A DNA stretch of 63,653 nucleotides, counting the filler, from Parasitella parasitica NRRL 2501 (Eukaryota; Fungi; Mucoromycota), in assembly GCA_025201805.1 (NCBI GenBank). It is 8 parts of 8 records of this genome, joined end to end, with 100 filler letters (N's around TTAATTAATTAA, not from the genome) between each part and the next. Parts side by side here need not be neighbours in the genome. Positions count along the whole stretch, not along the records: positions 25,576 to 48,822 come from MU619313.1; 7 more parts are not named here. One strand, written 5' to 3'. The first letter of the stretch is position 1; each line of letters begins with the position of its first letter. This document shows, piece after piece, positions 2,022-63,073 of this stretch. The notes under the pieces were generated by a model. It saw only the letters and a list, made by a program, of their open reading frames with translations. It made no database searches and was not told the DNA's origin. Made by a program: the position numbers and the translations under genes.

Positions 2022-5000
2022 NNNNNNNNNNTACGCGAACTTCAGTGCGATATTGTCAGATAAAAGACAAAAACTGTAAGAAAACAATGTTTAGCGATCT
2101 CAAACACAAAAAAAAAGTAATTCAAGTAATAAATTGGACTATAAGGCACCTTTTAATCATATATTTGCATAGCTTAGAACAAGTTTTTGTACTTTTAGGT
2201 TGACATCAGATGAAGATAGCGACTTTCCTGACTTTTTTCGGAAAAGTATTTTTCAAAATCAGAGCGTTGGATCTTCAGGCGAGTTAGAGAAATTCAAGTA
2301 CTACCATTAGGAAGCCAAGAAGCACACCATTTAAATAAACTAGGTTGCAATTGTTTTTTGCTTGAATTGGGTAATTAATCGATTCTCAAAAATAATGCTC
2401 TCTTAAAAAAAAAGCACCATTTTTCTTTGATAGCGGAAATTAAAACCGTCCAAAATCAGGAAGGGAAAATTCTTTCAGAAACTCCATTTGGACAATTAGA
2501 AAACAAAATTACTTCTTTGAGGCAAGATATCATCTTCCGTTACTATGCACACCACGGCTGTCAATCTATGATAATGGCTGTATAGTTGGGCACGCTACAC
2601 GATAGTGTTATTTTCATAATCCCCGTATGCCTATGGAAGGAATTCTGCCGAAAAACCTTTAAAACAGATTAGGAGGGAAAAGTCAACATTTTGCTTAATC
2701 AGAGCGCATTTCCAGTCTTTCAGATCAAGGAATGACCTTTTGTGATCATTTTCCTCTAATATATGATATAGTAAAAAGTTACATTTTTGAGGCCAAAATC
2801 GAGGATAATGCATAATCAATGATTTTGGATGCGTGGATACAAGGAAAAAAGTGAAAAAAATCCGTCATTTTGCATCGAAAAAAAAATCATACTCAAATTG
2901 TACCAAAATCATATATAATATAGTTTTTTCCCGATGGATACTATTTCTGGTGTTTTCAGGGCACTTTCAATTATTAAAATCAATCAAAAAATGGCACACG
3001 AAGGTAAATTTCTTGCTTTTAAGCTGCATTTCTTGCTTTTAAGCTGTAAAAAATATCTACTTAGAGATGATATCACGTCGACATCAATTCTAGTACGCAA
3101 TACAGCTCTATAAAGTATGTATTTTTAATACCACAAGTATACCTTTCCTCATAGTTATGAAATCAAACAAGTGTGGCCCATCGAGTTGGATAATTAATGG
3201 ATACAATGTTTTGCTGTAATAACCCCTAGCTATTTGTGAATAATTCAAAAGTTGCTAATTGCTAGTGACAGAGGAGACCTGTTACCATTGTTGCTTATAA
3301 TAATGATTATTCCCAGATCAAAAGTTCCTTTTTTTTTGTAAATCTAATGCTAAACATGTAAAATAGAGGTGAGAATTGTGGTTGAGGATGATTTTACGAA
3401 CAAAACTTATAGGCTTCTGGTAGATTTTAAGTTCCAGGTTCCAGGTTCCAGGCTCCAAGCACTGCACTGTAGAATATCAAATTCTGAATAGGGGATAATT
3501 TGCTATACTAAACACATTTTTGTACACCAACTCGTCCGTTAGAACGAGTCCCGACTGTGTATTCTTTACTTGATCTTGGATAAGCGGACTTAACTCAACA
3601 TATGAAAAATAAAATGATAATTATGTGAAGTTGTAAAAATAGAGATTTTCATTTGCTTTAATATGCTATGATTTTTTAACAGACATATAATAAAAGGAGA
3701 AAATAGAATAAAATGGTTGGCTTTAACTTAGATTCAGGGATAAACTGCCATTGTGTAAATGCATAGTTTGACCGATACTTACAACTCAATACCTTATTAG
3801 TATGTGCGCTTTGATGGTTTGTAAGGTTGTAATTTAGTTTAGATATCTTTGCAATCCTATAGACTTGCCTAAATATTTGGGCTTATTCAGATGTTTAGTA
3901 TCTAACGGATATATCTTGAATAATTTACCAACATTTTAAACATTGTGGCATTCAAACAATTTTGTGTTTTGGCCCGCTGGTGATTGTTCAGTTACAGTTC
4001 CTAAGGTACATGTCAATAGTGTTGGTAAAAGATTTTTATTGTATTGAAAAATGGGATAATAAAAAACCCAAATCGCCATTCATTTAAAAATACCTATTGC
4101 TTCTGCAATATGGCTGTTTTTTAATACTTCCTGTCCCTACTTGAAATATTTTCTGGAAAACATTTCCTTCTCTCAGAAATAAAAGGTTTGTTGACAGAAA
4201 CCCTAATATATATTATTACATGTGACATTTATAATATACTTGAGATTTTTTTTCAAAAACCATGAAAAGACTGCATGTACATTGCGAATCACAATTAGCG
4301 CACATGTATCCAGAATATGCTGAAATTCAGCATTATGATAGAGCTTATGCTCTACTTCAATCTGATGTTATACGGTACGCGCTTTACTTGAGTTATTCTC
4401 GTAATGATTATTGGCTGGTTATCCATCATGCAAGATCAGCCCACACATCTGTACGCTTAATGCTCAATGTGATGATTCTAGGTTGTAGATGAAGTCGAGT
4501 ATTCAATGTGAATAACACAGATATAGATAAGTGTATTGGTTTCAATAATATTACTAAATAATAGCTGGAATACTAATTGTGGATTCTTGTGAGGTCGGAT
4601 TTCATCTGATCATATAGAGTGAGTGTAAGTTTAGGTATACTTATAATATTGAAACATTGAGAGTTGCCTATAAGAATAAGTGGTATTTAAATATGTAGCA
4701 TGATACAACCCATAACCACTATAGTTTGTTTGTAGCAATCTATTCTACGTTGTTGCTAATAATCAAAAAACCCTACATATCTCATTCCGTTTACTCGTAA
4801 TATATATAATACATACATTTTTGCCTTTTTTCTCTTTCATAATCTTTTCATTGATTATCTTATTTTTTTTTTTAATTCTTTCACTACTTACAAGAAGAAT
4901 GTAATCTAAAGGGATTTAGAAGAAGTGTCAACTCATCTGTCATTTCGATCAGTAACAACGGTAACATCAGTAACAACGGTAACAACGGTATCATAGTCAT

Positions 5001-25475: not shown

Positions 25476-25575
25476 NNNNNNNNNNNNNNNNNNNNNNNNN
25501 NNNNNNNNNNNNNNNNNNNTTAATTAATTAANNNNNNNNNNNNNNNNNNNNNNNNNNNNNNNNNNNNNNNNNNNN
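25476..25575. other. Artificial gap linker (N44-TTAATTAATTAA-N44); also at 48823, 50750, 54355, 57155, 59345 and 61689
   Basis: An identical 100-bp spacer containing a six-frame stop cassette occurs at seven positions. Confidence 0.95.
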
Positions 25576-28299
25576 GTTTATTTTAGATATCACTTTGCAA
25601 GATAAAATTGACAAGGAAATCTCGGAAAGTAATGTTCAATTTGAAAACAAATTGCAGCTGGTTGAATATCGACACATGGTTTTATTGTCTTTACTGAATC
25701 ATAGTCAAGAAGAAGAAGCAGTAATTGTATACAATAACGTTACAACAACTTCCAAGGAAGCTTTGTCATATTCAAGGCCCAATTTCTACAAAGTGCTTAT
25801 GGACCTCATCATTCAAAAACAGCTACCGATGAGCTTCGTGGATAACAACAAACCGCTACAGGATCTCTTGGATTTTTGCTTGTCGAATGAAAGCCCTGAG
25901 ATGAAAAATGTGATCAAATTACCCGTGAGAAATACTATCAGAAATCAAATCTTAGACTATTTTGATGTGATGAAACGAAAAGCATAACTGATGAGCTTAT
26001 AGCCCAAGACTGCATCGCTCTGACAACAGATCTCTGGACATCATCAACAGGTAAAGCAATCTGCATATCAGCCATATTCTATTGGCTGGTTACTCAATTG
26101 ATTGATTAATTATTAGGGCAAAGTTTCATTGGCTTGACCAGTCATTTTATATCAAAAGAAACATGGAAACCAAGACAGATCACCATAGGCCTAATTCATT
26201 TCTATGGATCAACACATTCTGGTATGCAGGAATACGACGTTTGCTTGTTTTTTGCAAGTGATACTGATTTACATATATCAATTTTTAAGGTGACGATCAG
26301 GCAACAAAAATCTTTGAGGTGTTACAATCGTATGATCCAAGCATGCTTTCGAAAGTCTTTGCCGTAACCTGCGATAATGCCAGTAGCAACACAAAGCTTG
26401 CCGAAAAACTCGAGCGTCTAATGAGAAGCTCCTACGAGAACATCAAGTTTGTTGCTTCAAATCAAAGAATTCCTTGTATGAGCCATGTAGTAAATTTGGT
26501 GACTCAAGACTTATTAAAACAGTGCACCTCGGCATCATCAACACCCCCCTCAGCACCAACATCCTCCTCTACAACACCAAATATTCTATACAAGCTCAGA
26601 GAAGGATGTAAGAAGATAAAGCATGTAAACAAATTGAAGCATGCATTTAACGAATACCAAGTTAACTACAGCAATGCCACTCATGACATATAGTTGTAGA
26701 TTGTCCTACCCGATGGGGATCCACGCATCAAATGATACGGCGATTTTTGAAAGTGAAGGCAGCTTATAACGTTGCGGTTATGCAAGAAAAGGACACGAAA
26801 CAATTTTTCATCGAAGAAGAAGATGTAAAATATTTGCAAGCTCTTGATGAGCTTTTATTAAAATTCCATATTTCAACTAATTGGTTGTTGAGCTCGCAAT
26901 CGTAAGTTATAATCAGATTCATCAGTACATGGACAATTGCCTTGAAATCTAACATTTCATTTAAAGCCATACTACTTTTAACAGAACTATCCCGTTGTAC
27001 AATTGTTTGTACGATCTCATTACTGGTTTCCTGAGTAAAAATCAAGCTCATCCAGGTTTAGTGCTTGCTGGTAACGCTGCATTGGAAAAGTTGAGAAAGT
27101 ATTACGCGAAAACAGATGAATCAGATGTCTATTGTGTTTCAACTATGATTGACCCCATGCTGAAGTTTGGGTACTGGAGGGAAGAGGAGTTGGAAGACGA
27201 GATCATTGTGGAACAAGAGTTGAAGTGTCGCTCTGCTTTTAGTGGATTTTTAAAGGAAAAATTCAAGGCTATCTCTGAGGTGGTTGCTACAGCAGCCACA
27301 GCAGCAACAACAACATCAGCAGCAAATAAATCAGCAATAACATCGGTAGCAACAACAGCATTTGAAAACGATGATGATGAAGAAGGAGCAGTGGCCATGA
27401 TCTCAAAACAAACAGAAAAAGAAAGCAGACAGTGGCTCGTCAGCAACAAGTCAAAGCACAAAAGCGCCAAATGTTTACCGAGGAAGTATTCATCAACAGA
27501 CACAAATTAGAATTGGAACAGTTTGTGAGCGAAGAGTTAGAGGAATTTATTAGCATCAGCTATAGACCTAGTTGCGACACTATTGACGTTGTGCGTGATA
27601 GTGAGGACAATGACGACAGAGTTTTTTTTGGTTTCGACCAACACTTTGACCGCTACGGGGATGGCTCTTTGCTCGAAGGTTATGAATATGCTATAGGCGC
27701 ATTAGTTTATTGGAAGAACAACAAGAAGAGGTGGCCGCTGTTGGCGGAATTTGCAAGAAGATATCTTGCAATTCCTTCATCAAGTAGTGTGCCATCCGAA
27801 AGGTTGTTTAGTGTAGCGAAATTCAACATCAACAATAGTCGATCCAGATTGTTACCCGATTTTGGAGAGAAACTGGTGTTGCTAAAGATGTGGAGTAGAG
27901 AGTTGTAAATGTTTTTTTTTATTTTGTTTGTTTATATTGTATTAAGTTTCAATTGTTTGTGGTGTTTTCAAGTTTGTTGATGCACCTGTATCATTTTGAC
28001 CAGATACAGTGTACCGTGATCACCAATATCAATGCGAGACTTACCAAGAATTGTTCGAGTTATCTCAAGATATATGCGAGATGTTTCGAGATTTATTCGA
28101 GATTTATGCAAATTACGAGACAGATACCAAGATTCTGCGAGGCAGTATCGAGATTCATCGAGATCGTACCGAGATTCATCGAGACTTCACCGAGACTTAT
28201 CGAGACTTCGCCGAGACTTATCGAGCCAAGCCCTACCTTCAAGCGAGCCTGATCGAGACGTCTCGAATCTCGACTCGACTTGGCTTGATGCCATACCTA
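25576..28299 (+). mobile_element. hAT transposon (transposase pseudogene with introns and frameshifts) and its right end
   Basis: ALTTDLWTS, VTCDNASSN, IPCMSHVVNL (CxxH), DCPTRWGST and dimerisation domain WPLLAEFARRYLAIPSSS.PSERLFS. CGAGAY subterminal repeat array at ~28030-28280; terminus reads TAGGTATGGCA on the minus strand at 28299. Confidence 0.9.
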
Positions 28300-36092: not shown

Positions 36093-37064
36093 TCACTCTT
36101 CTAATTTATTGATTTCATCGTGGTAGCTTATTAAATGATAAACAAGACCTTCTCTCGTAGCATAATTTTTTCCACGCTTACAACCAAAAACAACACATTT
36201 GTATGGTTCTTCTCCATGATGGCTTTCAACTAAATGTGTTATGACATGTGTTTTCTTTTTAAACTCTTCATTGCAAGCAGGACAAATAGTAATAGGGTAG
36301 ATGTCGTTTAATTTCTTTTCAAGGCTTGCCGATAATCCTTGCTTTTTGAATCTCTTATCATTTAATATCGAGTGTGTTGATGTAGCTGTCCCTACTCCGT
36401 TTTGCTGTCGATCTGATTTTCTATTGACTGAAGAATGACTACAAATGCTCGAGTTAATTGATTGGCAAACCTGTTGAATAATAGCATTTACTTATTCTCA
36501 TTTATACGACTTATTTGATGAACATGCTCTAAGTGATATCGTAGCCCAGGTTTAGAGGAATATACATGTTTGCAATCTGGTGATATACATTTAAATACTT
36601 TTTGTCCACGATGTTTTAACTTCAAATGCTGGTCAGCTTCTGCACGGCCAGAGCTTGTCTGGAAGCAATCAGGACAAATCAGAGGGGGATAGGTTTCTTC
36701 GATCAATTGTAAAATTAAACCTTTTATATCGACTGATCTGTGTCTGCCTGGCCCGTTAATTAAGGTCATGGTGCTGTTTCTATTCGCAACAAGTCGAGGG
36801 TGAGGGGTAATTGGACTTGAACCATCAATTAAAAATTGACTAGGATCCATTGTTTTGCCTCTTTTTTGTTTTGAAGTAGCTTTTTTCACAGGAATCGAAT
36901 GAACCATAGGTTTTCTTTTTCTTGTAGCGATTTTCACATTACCATTCCTATCCACGTGAAATCTATTATCATACAAATCTGTAATATAGCCATTACTTAA
37001 TAATTACCAGTTCTTCAGCGATTGGCTTCCCATAGAACTCATTCGTGTGATATTTTCTTTGATG

Positions 37065-37105
<41 letters not shown>

Positions 37106-37202
37106 CCTCAAATTTGATCGTAATGGGTCTTGTTACTTGAGAGTGCAATACAATACAGTCACGAGAATGTGTTTGTCCTATCATTGACACCAATTTCTCC
37201 AT
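36093..37202 (-). CDS. C2H2 zinc-finger protein (4 fingers; 5' exon structure uncertain)
   Basis: CPDC..HLKLKH, CISPDC..HLEHVH, then after an intron CPAC..HLVESH and CVVFGC..HLISYH; stop at 36093. Confidence 0.75.
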
Positions 37203-38109
37203 AGTTAAGAAATATCAATCATTAGCAGAATATGGTTTTTGGGTAGCAAGCAATGAAGCCTTCTTATGTTCATTGATCATTTGATTTTTTTAGTAGCTAG
37301 AAAACAACTTGGCAATACAGTATTTTGAGTTGAGATGATATACGAAAGAATACAGTAAATTAAACTTAGACAATCAAGGAAAGTCATTCCAGACGATGGA
37401 AGTTTCTTTCAAGCTCAAAATGCCAGAAGGAAATGACGATAATTTCCCAATACAAGCATTTAAATATTTCGGCTAATTCATCCCTACTACTTCCTTTTGC
37501 GTGCCACGCTTATCCTTGACAAGCTTCGGCAATACAAAGTGTAAGCATATTTAATTGTAGGCATATTTGGTTTATCAATTGGTTTTTTTTCTATTTTTTG
37601 AATTTTATAGCAATATTTCTTGATAAAGTTCAAGGAAGGTAATTAAGAGAGCATAAAGAGTGGTTTGTAGCAATACAACATTTAGAACGTTATCTGTCCT
37701 TATCGTCGAAGTAACCTTACGTATGTGTTTTTTGATTTTATATCAAAACAATTCTTTTCTTCCAGAGATGAGAATCTGATTTAAAAGGGGTTAAAGGAGT
37801 CAATAAAAACTACTACATTAAGCCAATATGCTTCATATGCTAATTCATCTAAAGATAATAGTGAGATACAGGAGATAGGAAAGGCCGTATCTATCCAAAT
37901 GTCATGTTAATCTAATTGCACCGAAAAGATACACTCTCGTATTGACATTTATTCTGTGATCTGATGTTTTCACTCTTGAGATGCGAATCATAGTCTGTAA
38001 AGAAAAGAAAAAAAAGTAAACTGTAAATTAAAGTTAGTGCAAATAATGGGAAATGTTTAGCTTGGATGATCTTTAAATTTTGCTTTCTAACATCAATTTA
38101 GAGCATAAA

Positions 38110-39500
38110 ATGAAATGAAAAAAAGGAAATAAAGTTACGACGTAAACCAGGACAAGAGATATGCAAAGAGGCAAAAAGCTGCTGATAAGAGTAACAGCAA
38201 TGTATGCAGAAGAAGTGCTTTGGGCATGAATCAACAAGATCAACGAAATGCAGATACTATATCGCCACCAAACAAATGGTGTCTAAATAAAGCGTCGGCC
38301 CGCTTTATGACGCATTCACCAGAAAGCTACCTCTGGACAGCTATGTGAAATAGGTATATGCAAATACTCTGAAACAAACCACTATCTCTGCCTGCGGAGA
38401 TTTACAAATAGCATTCCATGCCCGGATATTTGTGAGTTATCATTTAACTCTTCGATTATAGCAACAGGAAAACAGTAAAATACAATATGTGAATATCTTA
38501 ACAACAATTCTGCTACTTTGTTTGCTAGTTAGTAAAAGCAAAAAAGAGTTATCATCGGAAAAAATTTGCCGTCAAACATGATAGCGGCGTTCAGCGCTTT
38601 CTAATATGAATAACTTTCCATTGTGAATAATCAAAAAAATCCGTAGAAACCTCACAATGCTTGATAGAGGCATGGACAGGTCACTATTAGCTATCAGATC
38701 AAGACGGTAGAAGAATTTGAGGCGTATCTTTCATCTTTTTGTACTATCATCTTCAAAATATTTTCGTTATGAGTAATAGAAATTGTTATGTGCCTATTAC
38801 AGCTAATCAACTTGCGCTGACTAGTCTACGGATCCGGGATCTCCTAAAAATTTTGCTACCTTATACGAAAACTTGACAGAAGGTGAATTTAAAGGCGGCA
38901 TGGATAGCGAATGTATTCATCAAAGACTTGGTGATCAAAAAGTGATACTTGCTTTCCTGTCCTCTTCCTTTTAAACGCATGCAGATGTCTCAGGGATATT
39001 TTAAATACAAAGTATGAGACGAATATTCTAGTCTTCGGCGTTACTATGTCAGAGGTCTCCTGCCTCCAAGGCTATTAAGCCATATGTACATTGGAGGTTT
39101 ATAATGCTCAGTGCAAATCCGTTATGCCTTTCTGTCAAGAAACAGTTACTCAGGACCGTAACAATCAACTTTAACTAGTTCATGATCTGTTCAACTTGAG
39201 AACATTGATGCATAAAAGGCAAAGCGTTTTTAAGGATGTAAACCGGGAAAAAGGTACCTACTCAACAGTAATGACGAGCCAAGGCCAAACGGAGAGAATG
39301 AATTTTACTTTGACAATCTATTTTAGTGAAGTGCATTCTACAAACACGATGACGATGCATTGATGCGAGACTAAAAGTTTTTTCAATTCAACTACAGGCC
39401 GAGTTTTCTAGACCCAAGCAGAAGTGCAGTTTTGACTAAAATCAGCAGTATGAAGAGTATTATCTTTTGACAGGTTTGAAGAAGCTGCGATAATAGAAAG
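38110..39500 (+). pseudogene. Degenerate Fanzor1 (TnpB-like) gene: N-terminal zinc knuckle, WED/REC region and RuvC-I
   Basis: Manual translation across frames gives, in order: KKCFGHESTRSTKC, GPLYDAFTRKLPLD (38297), QQFCYFVC*LV (~38502), SQCLIEA, LPPRL..HWRFI (39060-39103), YRPSFLDPSRSAVLT (D at 39411; DPG-like RuvC-I) and EYYLLTG (39455). Confidence 0.7.
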
Positions 39501-39775
39501 AATACAGCCGGTAGCACTGCAAAATCTGAAATTGCCGTGATATACACGGGTTTCTTTATGGATTTAGATTGCTTCAGGCAAGTCTAATATCAAAGCTAAT
39601 TTGCTTTTGTCTGATTTCATCCAAAAATGGTAAGCTATACCCTTACATCTAAATTCTGACCTGATCTCCAAACAATCTCCGCATTACTTCTCAATCTTTT
39701 TTCTTTTTATTTTTTCTCTTTCTCTTGAAAATATACCTTGCAAGCATTGAAAGCATTTTGTTAACCTCCGATATC

Positions 39776-41658
39776 ATGTCAATTGACATTTTACCACAAA
39801 AAACTCCACCCGCAACTACGAAAGAAAGGGTATCTTCGTATTCGCCGTCTTCATTAGAAGAAGACTCAACAAACAAACAAGTAAATCCTCATTATGTAAA
39901 CAGTCAGCCAGCTGTCGTATCGGATAATAAAGTTCAACCAACTGCCGTTATTCTAAAGAAAGCTATTAAGAAGCCACCTCCATTATTCATCGATATACAA
40001 CAAAACACGCAGAACAATGCCCCTGTGAAACGCACAATAAAATCCCCTTCTTCTTCGGTGAGGCTTATGGATTTAGGGCATTTGGACAACGATGAACAGT
40101 TAGTTCTAGAGGAAGAAATAAAAGCAAGAAGATTAGCCAGACGACAAAAAACTTATGCCGATGATAGAGATGATGAGGAGCAAGACGATACTTTGATTAC
40201 AATTGGAACAAGAGTAGCAGAAGGTCATCGCAACTATCAAATGATGTATGATATGCTCACCGGTATAAGAATCGCAGTTGGGAGAGTGTCGGCTAAAATT
40301 GCAAGACCACTGACGGATGATGATTTCACTGCGGCACACAAACTAGTGTTTGACATGTAAGTCTTCTGCTTTGCTTTTATTATTTGGGCAAGGCATTGAT
40401 GGAGGTCTATATAGTACAGGAAATGAACTGACGCCTGGTGTCAAATATGATTTCAAATTTAAAGATTATGCTCCCTGGGTATTCAGAAACCTGAGGGAGA
40501 AGTTTCATGTTGATGCAGCAGATTATATGATGTCTCTTACAAACAAATATATATTGAGCGAGATTGGATCACCTGGAAAAAGTGGAAGCTTTTTTTACTA
40601 TTCTCGAGACTACAGATTCATTATCAAAACAATTCATCATGGAGAACATAAATTCATGAGAAGAATACTTAAAGAATATTACGGGGTACGTTTAGATTAT
40701 TACTTGTTATATCCAATTCATGCTAATGTATTTTTTCGTAGCACGTTGTAAATAATCCAAATACGTTACTCTGCAGATTCTATGGTCTTCATCGCATAAA
40801 ATTACCAAGAGGCCGTAAAATACATTTCGTTGTTATGGGGAACGTCTTGCCTTCGAACAAAGATATTCACAAAACATTTGATTTGAAAGGATCTTTGTTT
40901 GGCCGCCTTACATCGAATGAAGAAATTGCAAAGAACCCTCGTTCTGTTATGAAAGATCAAAATTGGGTAAAAACCAAGGAAAAAATTCAACTTGGCCCAG
41001 CAAAACGCGCATTATTTTTAACACAGCTTGAGAGGGATGTGGACATCTTGAAACGTTTGAATATCATGGATTATAGCCTACTGGTGGGTATACACGATAT
41101 TCGAAGAGGCAATACGGAATGTATTCGAGATCAAAGCCTGCATATGGTTACTCCTAGGACTGATAGGATGGAGAGACGCTCATCCACAATCAAGCGAAAT
41201 AAAACTGAAAAAGCAGAGATCGTACGGAAAGCTCTAAGAAATGCTAATCCAGTTCATATTGATACATCAGAATTACCTGTTAGTCCATCTGAAGAGTAAG
41301 CTGGTGATTTTTATTTATGTTTATACATTGTTCACTCAGATGCTAATATGCTTTTCTCAAAAGACGTCGATGGTGTATATTTTACGCTGATGATGGTGGT
41401 TTTAGATCTAGTAATGAAGAAGATGAACCTTCGGATAAATTATATTATGTTGGTATTATTGATATTTTGACGCCTTACAATATTGTTAAGAAATCAGAGC
41501 ATGTTTGGAAAAGCATCACCCAAGATAAGGATACTATATCTTCTGTTCACCCACTTGTATATGGCAAGAGATTCATGGATTTTATGTTGAAAGCTATTAA
41601 TGGTACTTTTAATTCCTCTCTGTCAATAAGCAGAACTCATAGCAAAAAACACCAATAG
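39776..41658 (+). CDS. MSS4: Phosphatidylinositol-4-phosphate 5-kinase (Mss4/Its3-like), multi-exon
   Basis: [63 protein letters not shown] and YGKRFMDF. Confidence 0.93.
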
Positions 41659-43972: not shown

Positions 43973-46900
43973 CTAATTAAAAACTTCTTGTACTCGGTCC
44001 TCAATTGCTTTAACACAGTCGTGATGCTGTTCAACCCATTCACGAAGTTCATTCATGCCTTTCTGCAAATATTCCGGGGTTGAGGAGAGTTTAGTTGTGA
44101 TTTCAGTCTCGTCTGTTGCTTTGAGACAAGTGATATCGTATTTAGTATCATATGTATCAAATCGAGCGTTAGCTAGCCCTATAATATGGCCTTTTATATC
44201 GTGAAAGTGGTTCAATGGCAAACGAAATTCAATTTGACAAACTCCTTGACTTTTGTCTGTAACCAAAAGAGTCTGACGCCATAATTTACGACCATTTAGG
44301 TTTTCCATAATAGGCGAGCCTGTTTCTATTCAGCAATGAATTAAACCGTGTATCACTGTTTTAACAGTCAGGACTTACGTAAAATATATACAGCTAAATC
44401 AATATCTGACAGCTTATCCTGATGGCGAATATTTACACAAAGAGTAATAAACCTAGGAATATACGCATTTTTTGTAATAACCGAAACGGCGGGCTCCCAT
44501 CGAGTCATGAGTGTTGTCTTTAGATCCAAGCCAGGATACTTCTTATTTTTAGGATGGTAAGGCTGTACAAAGAAAACCTTAAAGCGGTTGCCTTCTACAA
44601 TGTCCAAATGATTTAATTCGTTTGCTTTTGATAATAGCAACGTAGCCCATGGTTGTTGGGATCCATGTAAAGCATCACAGACACGAACTCTGAAATAGCC
44701 TTCTACTCTTCGTTCTTCAAGTTTTTTTGGTTCGCTAACGGTTCTATCCAAATGAGGAATATTGCTAGATTTATAGTTGGCTCTGAAATTCGGCAAGCCA
44801 TAACTCTGTTGGCGGCGAAGGCCACCAAACCTGTCAAAGGTTTCGATTTTGCGACGTGCATCTTCTTCTTCCTTTGCCGTTAGAGTTATTGTCATGCCAT
44901 TCGGTAATGATTCCCTGTACAAGATAGGAAGTTTTCGACAGACAACAATATCAATGGCTGTAACTGTGCCACCATCGTCAAAAATAGTTGGAATCGATCT
45001 AATAACCAGTTTTCTTTTATGGTACCCTAGCTTTTCATCCCATCGAGCTGGTAGACATCCGTTTGATGATATCGACAGCATCGTTTCATTGTCTCTTATG
45101 CTAAGAGGTGACTGAGCTGTCTTATCACCAACAATTTGAGCACCACATATTGACAATTTGAGTCCAATCTTTAGTCTCTTTCGTGCAATAGCATGCTCCA
45201 TTCTCAGGTCTATGCGCGAACGTATTTTATACCATCCATCAGACAGAAGAAGTTGGTATTTGTTTGCTGTAAAAGCTGGTTATTCGTCAATCTACACAAA
45301 CTTCGGAATATGGACCTACATGTGTTATAATTCGACAGGGAGTTTTTTGTTTCGATAATATCTACGATGACCAAAACCATATGCTTTACAGAATTATCGT
45401 CCTGTTCCAAAATCTTTTTCAAAACTGGTCTTTGTCCCATGTTCACCTCACGTTCATATCTGTATAACAATTGATTGAGAACCAACTTGTTACGCCACTG
45501 ATCTATAAATTGATCAGGATAAGATCGGATCTGACAGGCGATTTTCCAGACAATCAAGCCATAATGATTTTGGACCCAAGCTGATGTTAAGCGGGTAGAG
45601 ACGCAATTTGATTGTATCATATCTTGCTGAGCATCTTTCCAACCCCAAATTCCTTGAAACATGTATGATTCTGCTTTATGTATGGTCATACTGATGATAT
45701 CGTATGGTCTATACAACATGCTTGTTAGATAATTCAATCAAAACTCTACTACTTCAAAGTGTTTACATGTCTTTAGATATTAATTGCTGCATACTGTAAG
45801 ATAACGGTTTACCCAGTGATGATAGCTTGTAACGGTTCTCTATGGCTTGAAAAACAGTAAAATCAATAAACTGATATTAGCATTTGTTTTTGAACCCTAC
45901 GAGTAAGATTGAACACTGGCTGTCCTATCAACTTCGAGTTACACTTGTTGTTTATGGCTGCTTTTGTCAATTCAATATTAGAATGAATGATTGGTGATTT
46001 GAACGGCTTGTTCTGTTTTTGAGGCGTTTTGAATCGTTTGTTGCGTTTACGTTGAATAGGTATAAACTGTGTTGTATCATTTTCATTTGGTGAATATGCT
46101 AGGGTATCATTTACAACTTGCTTGGGAGCGATATCTGGAACAATTTCCGCACTTTTTGGGCTGTCTGGTACAGTAGAATCTTTTTCAAACATTGTAATAG
46201 CTTCTATTTTGGCTTTGGAAGAAACACTGATCGCTTTCTTGCTGCTTCCCATTTGAAATCCACCATATTTATCCAGCACTTTTTCATAATTCAGCTCTGT
46301 ATCAAGAGGTCGTTTCAATCCTTGTTTCGTCTGATCTTTTCGTAGTACATTCACTTTGCCCTCATTTGCAATTGATTTAGATTTTAATTCAATACTGTCT
46401 CGACTAAGCTTTTCCAGGGTTTGCCCAGAAGATGTTTTAATTCCATTTGAAATATTTGAATTTGCCTTCATTTTATCATCCAAATTTTCAAGCAACAATA
46501 GAGCCTCTTTTTGCGTTTTTTTTGATACAGGGCCAAGCGATTTGCCGGATGCAGTGGCAAATTCAATTATCGCAGGTTTCTCCTCCATACATTCCTCATC
46601 GTTGAATAACGCCAACGCTATCTTTTTAGCTCCTTCAGATATTGGTTTTAAAGCTTTTCCCGATGCTGTTGTAAACCCTCCCATTGTGTGTGGTTTATTT
46701 TCAAATATGACTGCAGAAGAAGGTGATGATGTTGACGTAGGTATTTTGGGTGATTGGATTTCTTTTTGAGCATTTATGTGATTGACATCCATATTTGATA
46801 ACAAATCGATGTCTACATTACTCCAGATACTTTCATCTTGCGAATCATATAAGAATGAGCATTCATCTATCATTGGTTCTTTGTTTTGAACATCTAAATG

Positions 46901-47274
46901 TAGTTTAATAATATGCTCTGTTCATAAAATCAGATACGTTGCTACCAGGTATATTTCTAAGCTGTTTGTTGACACAAATTTCTCCAAGAGGTGTTTGTTT
47001 TCTTTTATTTTCTTTGCTTCTGAAAGGTATCTCAAATAATTCATCTAGAAATACATCAAAATCTCCATCTGAATCATCGACATCCTTTTCGCTCTAGAAT
47101 CATATAACTTGTTAATGACCAGAAAACTTCAAAGTTTTTTACACATACTTCTACATTTGCTACGGCATTTCTCTCAATTATTTGTAAACTCTCATATAAT
47201 GTATCTTGCACACTTGGTGTAAATTCATCCCAATCATCTTCAAATTCGTCGTGATCGTCCATGAAAACTGACAT
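43973..47274 (-). CDS. BRCA2: BRCA2/Brh2 homolog (BRC-like repeats, helical domain, OB folds), multi-exon
   Basis: FTTASGK and FATASGK BRC motifs, WVQNHYGLIVWK, QLLYRYERE, LSDGWY, KIGLKL.ICGA, SNGCLPARWD.KLG and GGTV..ID. Confidence 0.9.
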
Positions 47275-48922
47275 AAAAGTTCCAAAGAGTTAAAAGATAC
47301 TAGTTAAATAAAACCGAATATTTTTGAAGTGAGAACTGTGCTTTTCCAAGATCGAGTGCAGTGACTGCCGGGCATGGTATGGGAAGGGATGGCACCAGAG
47401 TTACAAGATGTTAGGCGCTTGCTTTGCACTCATGTTGACAAAGTTCCAAACAAGCACTTTCACAATATCGTATATGTCACTTGAGACATACAAGGTTAAA
47501 TTTCGTCGTGAATAGTCCCTGATGCTTCCACATTGTCAAACTTTTTCATTCTAAAGATGTCAGTTATAAGGGTGAATGCCTGAAAAAGTCAGCGAAAAGA
47601 ACATGTCGATAACAAAAGAAAAACCAAAAAACTAAGAATTCATCAGATACCATCGTAGTCATGTAAACCACCATCATACTTTTGGATATGGAGTTTTGTA
47701 GAAAAATATCATCACTTTAAGAATTCGATTTCGCAGCTCGAGACTGTACACCACGAGTGCGATACAAAAACTATTTTAAATTCCTGAGTTTACTGTTACG
47801 GGTATAAGTGAATTTTGTGATGCTGCCATATTTTCGGGATTTGAATCGAAAATTACCATAATAAGAAGATGTTCCTGAACGGACTTTACAAAAAAAGAAT
47901 CAAGGTTTTAAGTGATAAATATTGTTCTAGCGGTTACATGTCAAAACGACACATGGCTTAAATAAAAAAGGGGCTTTCTTTCGTCTAAATAATTCATAGC
48001 ATACTTTATCCATTTGGTCTATATCGCTGAGATTCTTCGCAAATCTATAATTTATCAAGAACATTATTGCAACAACAAACATATATTAGGTCATTCCTCG
48101 TACACCTTGTATATTTGTTAGACAGTACCCAAAATCTATCTAAATATATTTCACGAACAAGCACCGCAGCGTATCATTACATTAGAAGGGTAAATTTATT
48201 TTGTTGTGTTAATTTTTTTCTCACGTGATTGAAGTTTGAGCCAATGGAAACTCTGTTCCTGAATCTGTTTTGAATATACTTATTGAATAATGTTTTATAT
48301 TTGAAATAAATCAAACTTTCTTACGTTTAAATTCTATCATATATACTTACTTGCTATTCTATCGCTGCGATACCATACCATCTTAGTTATTCGACAGAAT
48401 ATACACTTAAACAACAGCAAAACAGTCGAATCAGTCTCGGGTCTGACCTGTTTACTGCAAGATCCTTCCATAACATTACTACATAATTTTGTTGTGCCCA
48501 AGGCACCAGTGTTTCGGCAAAATGCGAGTAAATAGCGGGTCACCCGACTAACAATGCCGGTCCGGCAATTCCAGAAGAGGATTCGAACAATGGTGACGTA
48601 TCCTGGGTTTCCCTAGTAGCATGTGTTATAAATACAGTGTTTCTACTTTAAATTCAGACGATGTTAATTTTTTTCTTGACGAATTGAAATTAATATTTAG
48701 ACAAATAGCTTTCCTATTTTGGAAAGCAAAATAATTATTTTCAGATAAAAAAGAAATTATTTTAGACGAATCAGAGTTAATTATTGGACCATTATCTTAC
48801 CTATTGTGGAAAAAGTAAAAATNNNNNNNNNNNNNNNNNNNNNNNNNNNNNNNNNNNNNNNNNNNNTTAATTAATTAANNNNNNNNNNNNNNNNNNNNNN
48901 NNNNNNNNNNNNNNNNNNNNNN

Positions 48923-50749
48923 ATTCGTATCTGATACAATCATATAATATATTTGCAGTAAATCAGCAAGCGTAGTACTTGTAGGAATTGATATAGTGCA
49001 GATGTAGCAGTGCGTATACATCATTACCCCCTGCCAAATTCCTAGAGGATAACAAGTACGGAGGTCGAGAAAAAAAAAGAAAACCGATGATAGAAGATAA
49101 CCAGAAGTAGACAATCCAAAGATGAGAAGCAAGCAAAGAGGATACCGGTACCAAAAGAAAAAAGAAAACCATTACAGGAGCCAAAAAAAATAAAAGATAG
49201 ATATGCTTGAGATGGATCGAGACAATTTGGAGAACATGACTGTAGCAGATCGAATAAAAACCTTGAAAAAAAACCATACAGGCCAAAAAAAAAAAAAAAA
49301 AAAAAGCAAGGAAAAGATCTCTACTGTTCTTGATTGTGAATTCTAGAATTCGAGCGTACTGGAAAGCGTGGCTTTGGAGTTGGGCCTGCGTGAGCACGGC
49401 GACGATGCAATTTACGCTTGTTGACAGTGTTGGGCAACAATCGACTGTCACGATTGCCTTGAGGAGAGATGCGATGCCAGTAATCATTGATAGGCTTTTT
49501 AGAATCAAAATCAGATTCCTCTTGCCAAGTATTGTCACTTTTATCAGGGTAGCCAACCCAATTAACGAGATATTGTATAGCACCTGTCTGTTTGTCAACG
49601 CGATGCGCTACAATAGCCTGAACTTCATAGTGATTGTCACGTAATTCGTTGGTGATATGATTATCAGCAGAATCAATCAAACAAATATGTTGAGTCGACA
49701 CATCACGAGGCAACAATTCCCCAGTTATGTCAGCCAAGACATAACTGCCATGTCGAGTATAATTCTTAATGAAATACGGACCAAGCCAACGGGGCTCCAG
49801 TTTCGACGATTTGGTAACATTAAGAATCATCACTTTCGAATTGATGGGATACTTATCATGAACAATTTTGTGTTTAGCTTCAAAACGAGCATGATCAAGC
49901 AACTGGGTTTCCTTAATTCGTTTGTGAATAGCAGGAATAACGACTAATTTAACAAATTTCAATCGCTTGTCAACAACAACACTATCAGGCTGAGCAATAG
50001 TAGATGGAGAGGGATCGTTCGAGTAATCTTGGAACATATTAGGAGCTCGAGCGAACATAACAGAAAAAGGTTGAGACTTGTGCAGACGAGCATATTGAAT
50101 ATTCATAGCATATTGAACAACATCTAAATATTCATCCCAAGCCTCAGGTTCAAGAGCATCATGGGTTAGAGATTTGATAATGGCACGTTTGGAAATGCCC
50201 ATGAACGCCTCACATAAACCGTTGCCAGTAGGAGTATAAGGATTAGCAGTGAGACGATCTATACCACTAAGTTCGAGAAACTCTCTGATGAAAGTTGAGA
50301 CAAATTCGTTGCCATTGTCAGATGTAATTTGACGAGGCCATCCAAATAAGCAACACACCTTAAGCAAGGCTCTTGCAACAGTAACAGGGCTTTTATCTGG
50401 TATTGCACGCAGAATAGTAAACCGACTGAAATAATCAACAATGACCAATAAATAATTATTGCCAGATGTTGATGTCGTAGCAAAGTCTCCAAGATCCACA
50501 GCAATGTGATCAAAGACATTATCGGGAAGAGCACTTCGTGGGGGATGGTATCCAACCTTAAAAATACCATGAGATTGACAGGCATGACAATCCTTCAATA
50601 CTTTGCTAATATCATCACGCATATTCGTCCAATGCACATGATAATCGTTATGCAAAATCTTTTCAATGGAATTGATGCCAACATGACCCAACAAATGTAC
50701 ACGCAAAATGAGCTCTAAGCGATCAGCTTTAGGGGGAGTCATGTAATCG
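48923..50749 (-). mobile_element. Ty3/Gypsy chromovirus 3' part: integrase and chromodomain ORF (49321-50742), PPT and start of 3' LTR
   Basis: HHCC motif (H..GH...CHAC), DDE core (IAVDL, VDYFSRF, SDNGNEF, GLCE), GPY motif (PRWLGPY), chromodomain (YEVQAIVAH..YLVNWVGY..NTW). GGCAGGGGGTAA PPT is followed by TG at 49023. Confidence 0.93.
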
Positions 50750-50849
50750 NNNNNNNNNNNNNNNNNNNNNNNNNNNNNNNNNNNNNNNNNNNNTTAATTA
50801 ATTAANNNNNNNNNNNNNNNNNNNNNNNNNNNNNNNNNNNNNNNNNNNN

Positions 50850-51404
50850 TACGACTCTAGTTCTTCCAAGCTTAAGTTCAAATGTTACATAAAAAAACAA
50901 AAATGCATAGAAGAAATCTGCCGACGACTTACATATGGAAGCGCTAAATACGGTGAAAAGTCAAGAATGACAGAAAAGAAACAAAAAACTAGTTATATTC
51001 CACCTACACCGATTGATCATGATATCAAACCTCGTAAAACAATTCTCGCCCTAGGAAATGCGATGTTCAATGGGAGTCTTCGAGGGAAAAAATCAGCACC
51101 AGTAAGACGTATCAGGGAATCATTGAGGAAGCGCTGTGGGGAGACGTTAGATATATGCTTCATAGACGAGTACCTAACAAGCCAAGTTTGCAACATCTGT
51201 AAAGAACGCAATTTGGAAAATGTTACAACGGCCAAGTCAGTGCGAAGAGTACATGCCGTATTGCAGTGTCAGCAAAACACTTGTAATACGGTATGGAATC
51301 GCGACATAATGGCTGCAAATAACATATTGGACATCTTTCTCTTCGCTGTATTCAATAACAACGAGCGTCCAGACATATTTAAGCGACACACCTCACCCGT
51401 ATGA
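50850..51404 (+). CDS. Fanzor1 (TnpB-like RNA-guided endonuclease), C-terminal 184 aa; 5' part lost in the assembly gap
   Basis: Open from the gap: KLKFKCYIKKQKCIEEICRRL (bridge helix), ILALGNA (Gly at the canonical TnpB Glu position), IDEYLTSQVCNIC (rearranged RuvC-II Glu plus CxxC), CQQNTC and WNRDIMAANNI (RuvC-III Asp). Confidence 0.9.
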   Translation, partial: YDSSSSKLKFKCYIKKQKCIEEICRRLTYGSAKYGEKSRMTEKKQKTSYIPPTPIDHDIKPRKTILALGNAMFNGSLRGKKSAPVRRIRESLRKRCGETLDICFIDEYLTSQVCNICKERNLENVTTAKSVRRVHAVLQCQQNTCNTVWNRDIMAANNILDIFLFAVFNNNERPDIFKRHTSPV

Positions 51405-52361
51405 TTGATATAACTCTCTCATACTCCTTACAGATGTAAGTATATATACATTCTAAACTTCAGTCAATATCCTAACCATTATTTTCTTTTTACCCAAGTT
51501 TTTCTGCTTTTCTAAGGTAAATTCATGATCATACTATAATACCATCAAAAACCAACTTAAATTGTCTAATTTCCATTTTTACTTTTTCCACAATAGGTAA
51601 GATAATGGTCCAATAATTAACTCTGATTCGTCTAAAATAATTTCTTTTTTATCTGAAAATAATTATTTTGTTTTCCAAAATAGGTAAGCTTTTTGTCTAA
51701 ATATGAATTTCAATTCGTCCAGAAAAAAATTAACATCGTCTGAATTTAAAGTAGAAAAACTGTATACAAGTCCCAAATAAACTATTCCTTCAAACGTACA
51801 GCCCTACATTTATTTATAAAACGCTTTTACTACAGCAGTGCTGCTAAAGCAAGCAATAAAAAATAACCAGTATCAATAGTATATCTTTTAATCGGTTAGA
51901 TATCCAGTAAAGAGCCAAGGAACGATTGTTCAAAGCAAAGCAGCTTTGCCCACAACGTAATGGACCATTAGAGCCTTGCGCAGTAAACCAGAACAACAAG
52001 AGCGCCAATGTGGATACCGTAGATGATACCAAAAGATAGGCCCCTAAAAAGCAAAAGTAAGCAATGTTAGCAACAAAAATAAACAAACTGTCATATATAT
52101 ATAACTTATAGCGCTTGCTCTCTGTAGCAAGTTCATACGCTATTTCCGCAGTCTTCTTTACCTTTACCCCCGCCCTTCCTCGAAAGTAGAGAGTGCTTGT
52201 AAGTAAAAAATGAGGAGTTTCACCGCAAGGTTCTCCTCCAATACAAAAAAAAATTGGCTTTGAACTTGGATCTAGCATGAAACTTTTACTTAAAAAAGGT
52301 GGTATATGGTGCGTTGTGAAAATAAAGAAAAGTAAATCTTGGGCAACTAACTATACATAGT

Positions 52362-54089: not shown

Positions 54090-54454
54090 AACGTATTATC
54101 GGAAAAAGAAAAAGCGTAACACACTTCACTTTGAAGTAAGGACACGCAAAAGCAAAGAGGTCTAATGGTGTTTGTGACGTCAAAGCAGTCCCAGTGACGT
54201 CAAATTTTAAAATTGGAGGGCAGTACCTATTTTTTTTCTTTTTTTTTTTTTCGTTAGCTTTTCATCCTCACCTCAACAAGATTGGATCTTGCTATCTGCT
54301 ATTCCAGTGCATGGCGTCCTGGATGCATTCTTTTCAGAGTGTATTAAATGCAGGNNNNNNNNNNNNNNNNNNNNNNNNNNNNNNNNNNNNNNNNNNNNTT
54401 AATTAATTAANNNNNNNNNNNNNNNNNNNNNNNNNNNNNNNNNNNNNNNNNNNN

Positions 54455-57154: not shown

Positions 57155-57385
57155 NNNNNNNNNNNNNNNNNNNNNNNNNNNNNNNNNNNNNNNNNNNNTT
57201 AATTAATTAANNNNNNNNNNNNNNNNNNNNNNNNNNNNNNNNNNNNNNNNNNNNACCTTCCTGATTTGAAACAAAGACTTTATTCTCCTGTTTCGACAAG
57301 TATAACAACACATCATTGGACAATCTCCAATCTTTAATTGAAGTACATTATCATGATCTCCTATCCTACATTATGGCAGATCAGA

Positions 57386-57720: not shown

Positions 57721-60416
57721 CAAGAACGAGATTCATTGCCATTTTGAAAATAGATGTAATTTTTTTATTTATGCTTGACAGGATCATGACAAATAGGCTA
57801 TCGAGAAAGAGCAAAATAAAGCCTATCTTATGCGCCATAAGAACAGGCATGATCATCGCTATCTGAGCATAACTTGATTTCCACTGAGTGATGTCTCTAT
57901 CAAAAGTTATCTGCAAAACCAGTTTTATTTTTCAATATTTCTCATAAATATCACATATTTGCTCATAACTTGTGCTAAAATGACCGTAGAACCGAGATCT
58001 AACTTGGAAAACTTAGCCTTGACTTGGCGCTATCTTGCATCAACTTTTGCGGAGGTTAAAAATTTTAGACCTCCTTTTAAAACTCCGCATTTTGGTGTTT
58101 CCATCTTTTTTGTATCTTTTGGTTCGATTTTATTTTACATGTCTTTTTTTTCTGTTTTTTTGAATATGCTTGCGAATTGATGAAAAACAGGGTTGGTTTT
58201 TCCTGGTTTTAACATTTTGCCTGGCGACATTGTTTTATCAAACTTGCAGTCTAACTGTAATGATTCACATTACATGATGTCTCATTTTATATGAAACATC
58301 CAATTGTTATAAATAGGTTCAACGTTTACCAGATATTGGAACGCTAGTGAAAATATCTGTAATAGCGACTATAGTTTATTACAATAAACATTTCTTATAT
58401 ACTAGCAAATCTATTATCTATAAACCATTCTTATCACTGCGAACCTGATCTGTCACTACCGATCGTTGTTTACATATATATAAGTTTATAGTTCATATAA
58501 ATATCGCCGCATTGCTGTCAATTACTTCTTGTCAAATAATAGCTACATATATTATAACCCTGATAGCAATGTCAACAATTAGATACACCAACCGTCCATT
58601 AACATAGTACATCGTTCTACCCTTACTACTAGATAATTGTGCTCCATCACACGACCGTAAAATACCTGCAACAACGAACACAAAGTGGGCGCGTGTGCAT
58701 CTTAGAAAATCAAGTATAAGAGTATAGCGTAATAGAAGTAGCAAAAAAAAAACCAGAAAAATGGGGTTGCCAATTTTTTAATACGCCTAATAACATTGAC
58801 CGTGTTTTGCGTAAGCAGTAAATGCAATGCAATGCAGTAAACAGTATAAAATTGCAAAACTAATGGAAAAACTCTAATCTGGTGCACCAAGGTTATATGA
58901 TAAGATAAGCTTGATGTTGTTGAAAATGATACCTTTTATGTTTTGAAAATTGGTTGCTTAGATGAAAAGCTATTTCAATCTAAAGTCTTGATGAAAGGAG
59001 GACAAAATGGAAGAAACACTTATTTCATGTCTCATAGTTCTTTTCTAGACTTTAAATTATGACAGCCAAGTTTGTCAATGCATTGTTGCATTCGAATGGT
59101 GTATTAATTATAGTGTGGTTTGTTTCTCTTGTCTTCTCTACACTGCTCAATACAAAAAGCGAAATTGAGAAATCTGCGGCATACAGCAGTAGCATTTTGA
59201 AAATATTATTACGGTTATAAATTATGTTTTGCTTGTGCTGAAGTGATAGTGCAGTAAATTTGAAAGATTTACGAAATAAAAAAAAATAAAAAAATAAAAG
59301 CGATATGAAATTACAATTATAATCAAGTTTGGGGTTCTTTATTANNNNNNNNNNNNNNNNNNNNNNNNNNNNNNNNNNNNNNNNNNNNTTAATTAATTAA
59401 NNNNNNNNNNNNNNNNNNNNNNNNNNNNNNNNNNNNNNNNNNNNTGTTCCTGAATTGTGTTCAGGATTGAGTTTACTTGAGTTTGACTTCCGGTTGGGAA
59501 ATTGACACATCAGTGTTGTGCCAGGTCTTGAAAATGAGCACAGCAGGTGATTGTATGTGATATAAAAATATAAGAATGTAATAAAGACTTAGTTTACCAA
59601 ATACAAAACTATTGATTTATTGATTGACAAGAAGCTGTCTATTTATATTAGAATAAATCTATCTAAATCAATCTGTAATAAAAAGTGAAAACCAACAATA
59701 GATACAATTTAATTCCTTCTTTATTTTTTGGAATAAGATAACGTGCAAAGGTTAGACATTTCTATTCTATTTATATTCGTTGTTGAAAACGGTCTGTCTG
59801 TCAGTTATGCCGTAACTGTCAGTCAGGTTTTACTGTATTTGATTTTACATAATCAAGTACGGTATTCTAATATCGATGTTTCTGACACATTTGTAAATGA
59901 CATGCATGGAACAGTCCTTACATTGGTCTATGCGTTCCAAATGTGGTTTGTGGTTCGATTTCTTTTTATAAATACTTCATGGTTTAACGGTTAGATATTT
60001 AGGTAATCTGTTTATTAGCTTGATTTGGAATCTCTAAAGTAGTTCCGTAAGAGATGACATTCAATTACTTTTTGTGGGAAGTTCTATCACTTCAGCACAC
60101 AATCTATAAAATACAATCAAGTCATGTTTGACATTTAATTGTCAAACAAGATTATAACACAGTAGTAGTCAGAGCAAGACCTATTTCTATATGTAATCAG
60201 CTAATTGTTATGAATGTGAATCATCTATCGATAAGTTGAGCTTTGCAATTTAGAATAAGTAGAACCCAAATAGATGGTTTCTTATACAAGACATTCTATT
60301 GAATACTTCTATTTACTAGATAGAATAATCGATGCCATTTAACCTTAGATCCGATCAGGAACGGTTGCCATGACAACTGAGTTGAAATAGTGGTAACCAT
60401 GGTATTCTATGGATAC

Positions 60417-61150: not shown

Positions 61151-63073
61151 TAATTAGAATGGAGTGTACAGCTTAAAAATTGCCTTTTTTGGTTTTCGAA
61201 TCTCCTAATTTGGTTGATTCAAGCTATTTCGCCTGACTTTCAACATGATTTACTCTGTCGAAAGAGCTCTTATTTCAAATCAAAATAAATGACCATTTAT
61301 TTCACACTTTGTTGCATACGCACGTATTTTTTTATAGTTTTCTAAAGCTTCTAAATATTTTTAATTAGTTTTTGAAAATGAGATATACTTGATTTAACGC
61401 CGACTTCTCAAAAATTCGAAACTTGAATGGGAATTACAAAACCAAACAAAGCATTTATACACTCTATTCCTCGCTGAATTGTGTTTATTTTGCTGTGTTC
61501 TTGTGTAAATATGATTTGTATAAAGTAATAAAGACTTTTCTGAATAAAACCAAATACAAAACTGAAGACTTTTATTGACATAAAATATGATCTCTATTTA
61601 TACTAAAATATATATCCCAATCAATGTTTATCCACATAACATCTGATGTTTGACAAGAAGTGTCAAACCTTATTAAATCACAGCATTTNNNNNNNNNNNN
61701 NNNNNNNNNNNNNNNNNNNNNNNNNNNNNNNNTTAATTAATTAANNNNNNNNNNNNNNNNNNNNNNNNNNNNNNNNNNNNNNNNNNNNAATGTTTCTTGT
61801 TGCTTGAACAGCAACTGGGAAGCTTAATCGGGGCTGGTTCACTAAATGAGCCGGTTTGGGACCTGGAGTCTTGGATCCATGCTTGCTTTTTGAACCAGTC
61901 GGACGGCCCTTCTTTGCAGGTGTGTTGTAAGGCATTGTTTCTAGTTTATTTCATTAATTAAGTCAGTAACTGCTTCGTCGAACATCCAAGATTGTTTAAA
62001 AATGTTTTCTTAAATTTTTAAGACATACTTGAATTTATAATAATATGTTTGTGAAAAGAAGAGAAAAGAAAATAAGCCTTTCAAGTGAAAAATTTACTTA
62101 AATGTAGAAATGTCAAATCGAAAAAGGTACAATCAATTAACGGGGTAACAGAATTGTTTACTTCACAGCCGGCAGAATGTTCAGACTCTGCAGTGCTTAC
62201 TTTAATATATAATCAGTTACACTATTTCGAGCACTCTTATTGGATCATTACACTATTTCTAGCATTTTTATTGGCTCATTACACTATTTCTAGCTATTTT
62301 ATTGGATACATTTGGCCTCACTATAAGCGTACCGTCATTTTGTGGTCTTGTTCCTGGTAATTCTAGTATAACGTAATGTATAATGTCTGATTTGTTAGTG
62401 AGTTTCACGCATAATAGTTATGTCAGATTTCAAATCAATAGCAACGTATGAGAGGAACAAAATAGGGGATAATCAAGAACATTATCAGGGATCTACGGCC
62501 TTATTAGATAATCAGGGACAGAGTACTAAGAGAAGAAGATATGCAGTAAGTTTATTTCAAATAAGGAGGCTATGATTTAATAAAGGAAAGGTGGAGAAAG
62601 ATAAGAAGATTGCTAGGGATATTTAATAAGGGAATTCGATGAGGAGATCTGACGAAGAAAACTTTTCTTTGCTGGTCAAAATGGCCTCTATTTATACTTT
62701 TTGCGAGGTGTCTAGTTCACATTTCAGTGAACTAGACTATTTACTATAACGTGGATCAATTAGGTAAATAGGATATCGTGGATCAATAAGTCAATAGTAT
62801 AATGTGGATGAGTAAGGCAAGAATGACAGTGTGAATCAGAGAGGCAAGAATGCAATGCGGATTGATTAGGGAAGAACGAGGTGATATATATTTTTAGATT
62901 AAGATGTATAATTGTTTGGGCTTGAAGGCTCGACAGGTTCATGACAAACATATAAGATGTTAAGTCGATTCACGGGAAAAAATGAAATTAAAAAATAAAT
63001 AAATGTGATTTACCATAATTATAGACAGGAGATTCTGGCAAGAATATACTTCTTAATTGAAGATTGAAGATTG

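Follow-up and report, generated by a model that had tools for sequence, protein, structure and literature searches.

Bao and Jurka described elements that encode Fanzor1 alone and have Mariner inverted repeats along with TA duplications; in the motif that they give, the second catalytic motif and a C4 zinc finger lie 125–275 residues after the aspartate (PMC3627910). The presence of introns in Fanzor genes and their association with Mariner/Tc1 elements are described in another survey (PMC10530073). For SpuFz1, it was shown that the omega-RNA is made from the stretch running from stop codon to right end (PMC10432273). The subfamily of the relic considered here is already catalogued in Saito 2023 and Jiang 2023. 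Among the accessible entries of the former, KAF7721224.1 from Apophysomyces ossiformis (P0093 in our protein set) and OAD00684.1 from Mucor lusitanicus (759 aa) are filed as FZ1 (PMC10432273), while family4 in the available part of the latter lists Fanzor50_2877, Fanzor50_2837 and Fanzor50_2815 (PMC10530073 Data S1).

Here, we analyse a decayed gene within a window of 63,653 nt, filler included, from Parasitella parasitica NRRL 2501 (assembly GCA_025201805.1). The window consists of contigs chained by seven 100-nt linkers (each 44 N, a 12-base spacer and 44 N), hence distances across linkers are not biological; the relic lies inside one contig piece (Table 1). A sequence-only reading had proposed that the region 38110–39500, just upstream of the MSS4 gene, hides a second Fanzor1 fossil, older than and independent of the Fanzor1 copy at 50850. 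In all probability, the locus holds a dead, internally deleted Fanzor1 copy from this Mucorales subfamily; its likely vehicle was a non-autonomous Tc1/mariner-type element, inserted between a C2H2 zinc-finger gene and MSS4. The relic is an ordinary genomic fossil. Elsewhere in the window, broken ORFs at 25532–27908 (+) and 48923–50749 (−) presumably derive, judging by their motifs, from a hAT transposase and a Ty3 integrase-chromodomain protein, respectively, and we take a multi-exon gene at 43973–46921 (−) to be BRCA2-like.

Table 1 Features of the relic, its host locus and the second Fanzor1 copy; positions count along the window
Feature	Position	Strand	Remarks
Home segment of the relic	25576–48822		MU619313.1
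Linkers	25476–25575, 48823–48922, 50750–50849, 54355–54454, 57155–57254, 59345–59444, 61689–61788		
C2H2 zinc-finger host gene	36093–36939	−	Left neighbour of the insertion, head-to-head with MSS4
Interval between C2H2 gene and MSS4	36928–39758		2831 nt; holds the whole relic
Possible decayed intron	38023–38101	+	Place of the second L002 intron; donor-like start, branch-like word and AG end, by eye
Decayed Fanzor1 coding relic	38118–39320	+	L002 residues 64–444: basic patch, zinc knuckle, pre-RuvC-I region
Zinc knuckle	38201–38251	+	Position read off the translation
Peptide blocks after the knuckle (approximate)	38310–38340, 38417–38446, 38502–38531, 38652–38672, 38710–38721	+	
Candidate intron A	38766–38824	+	Donor at 38766 or 38769; at the place of an L002 intron; branch-like word, AG end
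Further peptide blocks (approximate)	39060–39074, 39089–39103, 39181–39198	+	
Intron B	39219–39268	+	50 nt, GC..AG; codon position and phase as in an L002 intron
RuvC-I block and following motif	39393–39484	+	About 12-codon deletion and a frameshift between them
RuvC-I peptide block	39405–39437	+	
Peptide block after RuvC-I	39455–39475	+	
Likely last 15 Fanzor codons	39495–39540	+	Stop TGA at 39538–39540; joined to the RuvC-I region by the deletion
3′ non-coding relic	39541–39640	+	Part of the stretch from stop to right inverted repeat; first 100 nt after the stop, homologous to L002
MSS4-like PIP5K host gene	39732–41658	+	ATG at 39776; PF01504 over three exons
Second Fanzor1 fragment	50850–51764		Open 183-aa frame; begins directly after an assembly N-linker

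The relatives used for comparison came from a profile of proteins related to the 50850 copy, which was run against 1.84 billion representatives. Low among the 150 matches listed were P0151, P0140, P0093 and P0119, the C-terminal halves of a subfamily other than that of the 50850 copy. The profile of this subfamily (A2) has matches to both SpuFz1 (E 6.9e-17) and PpFz1 (E 5e-6), and a metagenome scan with the A2 alignment yielded 38 loci. Longer A2 relatives were not found in a search that covered 794–2265 aa, and a look-up of P0119 led to PF07282/DUF8286 clusters, mostly viral, with no closer name. One of the 38 loci, the metagenome contig L002, contains a near-complete gene with five introns, one frameshift and all RuvC motifs, the last exon of which matches PF07282 above the cut-off. 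L002 is a whole 3.3-kb element, with 92-nt inverted repeats at 73–164 and 3299–3390 (84% complementary) and TA on both sides; as judged from these termini it is a TA-flanked Tc1/mariner-type element. It is the one close full-length relative behind the comparisons with the relic.

The peptide blocks listed in the sequence-only reading all lie on the plus strand of 38110–39500, in the listed order and across three alternating frames, and this strand holds zero ORFs of at least 100 aa there. When the 38 metagenome loci were compared with the window by tblastx, L002 gave five collinear HSPs over 38118–39154 (sum E 4.5e-12) and L001 an HSP at RuvC-I (sum E 2e-9), the remaining loci giving scattered low-complexity matches only (best E about 5e-4). 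Frameshift-aware alignment of the 780-aa L002 product, the kind of check that had been suggested, was collinear over the whole coding relic, with 114 of 341 codons identical and a score of 170.3; 60 dinucleotide shuffles averaged 49.9 (SD 5.8, maximum 65.7) and the reverse complement reached 65. When 86 tiles spanning the whole window were scored, each of the top five (103–187) overlapped the relic or the 50850 copy, and the best other tile reached 90. L002 was also the top of 56 proteins tried on the relic, the second being P0060 from Absidia (79 vs 42±6). With an amino-acid identity of only 33%, L002 is a cousin and not the direct ancestor.

At the DNA level, alignment of the whole region to L002 did not rise above shuffles (274 vs 205±29, maximum 284 of 30); of five segment pairs tried, 38770–39320 was significant (0/200), as were two tail pairs (1 and 0 of 200). 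The roughly 1 kb of extra DNA at 37116–38110 had no similarity to the left part of L002 (54/200 shuffles as high), and none of five N-terminal queries was significant for upstream exons in 37116–38120. Of 156 proteins used in tblastn, 8 produced an HSP in the vicinity of the relic, the best at E 0.019, and P0151 was taken from among them. Five stop-free pieces of the relic had no match in Pfam, and the PDB search with relic pieces returned one unrelated weak match or none, SpuFz1 and PpFz1 not being matched directly. A word search with the read-through piece produced 12 candidates, none of which scored, and viral contigs and phage records gave no match.

Single blocks are short, and these empty Pfam, word and PDB searches are what one would expect of a chance resemblance in AT-rich intergenic DNA or of the relic of a non-Fanzor gene. 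Yet the alignment score lies about 20 SD over shuffles, collinearity extends over ~380 residues, an intron is held in common with L002 and the tail is collinear as well, so that the probability of either is negligible. The homology to L002, together with the match of the subfamily profile to SpuFz1 and PpFz1, confirms at the sequence level that the relic is real and descended from a Fanzor1 gene, as had been claimed.

The relic is dead, its reading frame being neither open nor spliceable. Even with the two candidate introns removed, it contains 10–11 aligned stops and about 9 frameshifts. Its description as stop- and frameshift-ridden was therefore apt, except that an intron accounts for at least one of the frame switches; the introns had been overlooked and emerged from the alignment to L002. 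Cutting out intron B raised the score from 155 to 175 with about 45 gap-free codons across the junction, a gain to be read against other nearby 50-nt cuts, which score alike (rank 30 of 121). For candidate intron A the position fits and the score is unsupportive, its removal lowering the score from 155 to 147; it is likely a decayed intron.

The RuvC-I motif and the motif downstream of it, both named by the sequence-only reading, align with family members, and the codon of the catalytic aspartate is retained (39411–39413). Three of six queries on the RuvC-I block (L001, P0151 and P0140) beat all 100 shuffles; for the other three, shuffles scored as high in 4/100 (L002), 2/100 (P0093) and 26/100 (P0119) cases. 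Beyond this point the nuclease half is missing. None of six C-terminal family queries aligned past 39487, the second catalytic motif (RuvC-II) and the C4 zinc finger being absent, and RuvC-III falls inside a deletion, the tail match starting at L002 position 3114, downstream of RuvC-III.

The relic does not stop at 39500, the limit set originally, but continues to about 39640; this retained 3′ end, too, had escaped notice and was found by alignment to L002. The stretch 39495–39640 scored 155 against L002 3114–3295, compared with 95.5±13.9 for shuffles (1/500 as high), the tail having been found among five segment pairs. When an L002 3′ probe was run over 1204 window tiles, the three best were the relic tail and the next was the tail of the 50850 copy. 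Because 39495–39640 corresponds to the last codons, stop and 3′ DNA of L002, an internal deletion, equivalent to roughly 770 nt of L002, removed RuvC-II, the zinc finger and RuvC-III but spared the 3′ end. As two of the three catalytic motifs are absent, RNA-guided DNA cleavage is not expected, and the sequence predicts that no nuclease is made from the relic today.

Some further observations were made on the 3′ regions. A small hairpin spans the relic stop (39535–39549). A splice-donor-like word occurs ~80–100 nt inside the right end of L002 (3289–3295) and of the 50850 copy and is kept in the relic (39630–39636); in the 50850 copy it recurs at about 51517, 51597 and 51683, with ~80-nt spacing and each time after AG (by eye). 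This word might bear on the formation of the omega-RNA 5′ end, or might be a transposase site. The plus strand of 58201–58600 scores 125 with the L002 3′ probe, just under the two Fanzor tails, possibly by chance.

The relation of the relic to the 50850 copy was addressed with relatives of both. The 50850 frame is 96% identical to the Parasitella parasitica protein KAI8638725.1; by eye, the element of this copy appears to terminate at 51762, where a TA comes next as in L002. Seven full-length 50850 relatives (P0001, P0002, P0169, P0172, P0015, P0011 and P0019) score 273–586 on the 50850 copy vs 37–55, which is background, on the relic, and used as queries none of seven relatives of the 50850 copy matched the relic at E <0.3. 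A tree built from the C-terminal 230 residues of 39 proteins places L002 and its group apart from the group of the 50850 copy, both with 100/95 support; the relic, which does not have this part, stands outside the tree. The data support two separate invasions, as judged by this clade assignment, with the relic the more decayed copy, in agreement with the independent and older invasion that had been proposed.

The reading had added that the relic spans those domains that the 50850 copy lacks. This holds only as domain bookkeeping, but the 50850 copy is cut at the linker, and the RuvC-I of P0010, a protein 96% identical to it, is unlike that of the relic. The complementary domains could also suggest that the 5′ half of the 50850 element was displaced and is what we see as the relic; however, the two belong to different clades, the relic has a stop and tail of its own and the 50850 copy begins at an assembly linker, which leaves this with hardly any probability. 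P0010, which has its own RuvC-I, fails to match the RuvC-I block of the relic (71/100 shuffles as high), and the idea is thereby refuted.

We also looked at the ends of the relic's element. No inverted repeats were recovered at the relic locus, where the search for residual terminal repeats suggested earlier thus came up empty, and there were no tandem repeats or Rfam match of relevance. Comparison of 39600–39780 with the right inverted repeat of L002 gave no match (432/500 shuffles as high), and a target duplication could not be assigned, no right end being recovered. A candidate for TA plus left terminus lies at 37154–37161 (+), where 8 letters are identical to the left end of L002; with 4 matches in the window vs 2.26 expected, 17/100 shuffles with as many and no inverted-repeat alignment, it could be due to chance. 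As neither an inverted repeat nor a target duplication is recoverable here, the Tc1/mariner vehicle is borrowed from L002. Just within the extra interval described below and near this candidate left end, a run of 39 A occupies 37065–37103.

Sequencing runs were used to study the history of the locus. Run X7 behaves as RNA, X14 is a DNA run of a relative and X11 is bisulfite-like; X9, X10 and X12 matched with nothing or short pieces only, and X8 with 3 short pieces. Both flanking genes are still transcribed and are seen as spliced contigs in X7, that of MSS4 skipping three GT..AG introns. The C2H2 gene, whose C2H2 Pfam matches are weak and under the cut-off, is conserved in X14. A PF01504 gene does follow the relic, as expected from its placement upstream of a PIP5K gene. 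The X14 relative differs at 98 positions in 828 nt of the C2H2 gene and at 248 in 1942 nt of MSS4, and one X14 contig joins 36927 to 39759 by 462 letters vs 2831 here. A comparison of orthologous MSS4 loci had been recommended; the interval of the relative is without the about 2.4 kb that hold the relic and, by its length in this one relative, appears empty-site-like. The difference may reflect insertion here or loss in the relative.

In a neutral simulation, 10–11 stops correspond to ~0.2 substitutions per site, roughly (compatible with about 0.1–0.3). From 16 differences in 49.7 sites, we estimate a synonymous distance of about 0.42 to X14, or ~0.2 per lineage, again a rough value. Both values fit an insertion near the split of the lineages.

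In runs X1 and X7, 38711–38764 is overlapped by a 14.8-kb contig that comes from elsewhere in the genome. It shows 8 differences from the relic and has a 2-nt insertion close to one of the relic's frameshifts, and the family motif goes on in the loose end of the contig (hand translation). With this second related sequence, the subfamily has at least one more copy in the genome. Its occurrence in the RNA-like X7, with the candidate intron unspliced, could represent another relic in a transcript or a second Fanzor copy. An X11 contig over 38026–39504 shows only C>T and G>A changes, its 259 altered letters being all 259 plus-strand C, 41 of them in CpG; in this bisulfite-like run, which is without a methylated control, the relic is unmethylated by majority.

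The position of the relic directly before MSS4 raises the matter of a regulatory role. Its right end might have been captured by MSS4 to serve as core promoter or 5′ leader, the insertion lying at the gene start in the same orientation and outward transcription driving MSS4. In L002, ~95–100 nt separate the last aligned motif from the element end, and by this geometry the right end is projected to about 39730–39735 (about 39750 in a MAFFT register); the spliced MSS4 RNA contig begins at 39732, the X14 relative aligns only from 39759, and omega-RNAs extend outward beyond the right end in S. punctatus (PMC10432273). Against this, the right inverted repeat of L002 finds no counterpart here, the beginning of a contig does not map a start site, and the pyrimidine-rich 39680–39730 is generic, with unrelated X12 and X14 contigs sitting on 39687–39726. 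We therefore regard such a capture as improbable. There is also little likelihood that the insertion split a compact head-to-head promoter and that the omega-RNA-making end was taken over for cis-regulation, there being space for a retained host promoter among the 462 letters seen in the relative. The accessible literature on Fanzor exaptation, promoters and fungal domestication yielded no case of promoter capture or domestication of a eukaryotic Fanzor. If the right end did drive MSS4, a eukaryotic OMEGA element would have become a cis-regulatory part of a core lipid-signalling gene.

A different kind of residual function would be a "ghost" omega-RNA gene, in which the protein is dead and the 3′ region still provides a guide RNA for another Fanzor copy. 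The 3′ non-coding part was kept while the nuclease half was lost, a related sequence occurs in the RNA-like run X7, and ghost loci with working RNAs are described for S. punctatus (PMC10432273). But the inverted-repeat part, which is the scaffold in SpuFz1, is unrecognisable in the relic, 39530–39760 folds no better than shuffles (z −0.38; the tail of L002 itself z −1.24), and Rfam gave no match, so that we consider this very improbable. Among the X7 contigs listed, none from the locus itself lies on 38202–39731, although contigs cannot show absence, strand or level; a low-depth contig covers 37651–38201, with the same restriction as to strand and level.

Our preferred reading remains an ordinary dead copy, the history of which may be sketched as follows. 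The ancestor would have moved as DNA, with its introns kept, by a cut-and-paste mechanism with the transposase supplied in trans. Its nuclease would have been guided by an omega-RNA encoded between stop and right end, as in the Fanzor1 proteins tested. The element presumably inserted into the short intergenic space between the C2H2 gene and MSS4 around the time when the lineage split from the X14 relative, and would then have undergone neutral decay.

Compared with the known systems, L002 resembles the relic most closely, as the best of 56 proteins and with common intron position(s) and the 3′ tail, but unlike the relic it has inverted repeats, all RuvC motifs and only one frameshift. Within the parts of Jiang family4 at hand, Fanzor50_2877 is by eye almost the L002 product itself, exon joins included, and Fanzor50_2837 has the knuckle and the order of N-terminal blocks found in the relic (by eye). 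These family4 entries are largely open frames, whereas the frame of the relic is broken by about 10 stops and about 9 frameshifts and is without the C-terminal third. P0093 groups with L002 (100/95) and matches the relic weakly (2/100 shuffles as high, as above); the N-terminal layout of OAD00684.1, in the part available, is by eye that of the relic. SpuFz1 (Spizellomyces punctatus, PDB 8gkh) and PpFz1 (Parasitella parasitica, 9cf0) are matched by the subfamily profile and belong to distant clades. Among the proteins compared from the accessible part of Bao and Jurka, SPu-3 has the layout most similar to the relic (by eye), and ROr-1 to 4, PBl-1 to 3 and MCi-1 to 10 belong to subfamilies different from that of the relic. 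To the catalogued Fanzor1 subfamily the relic adds one decayed copy, and with the 50850 copy it points to two separate Fanzor invasions in one Mucorales-type genome; with an apparently empty site in a relative, introns kept and an internal deletion, it offers a tidy dated example.
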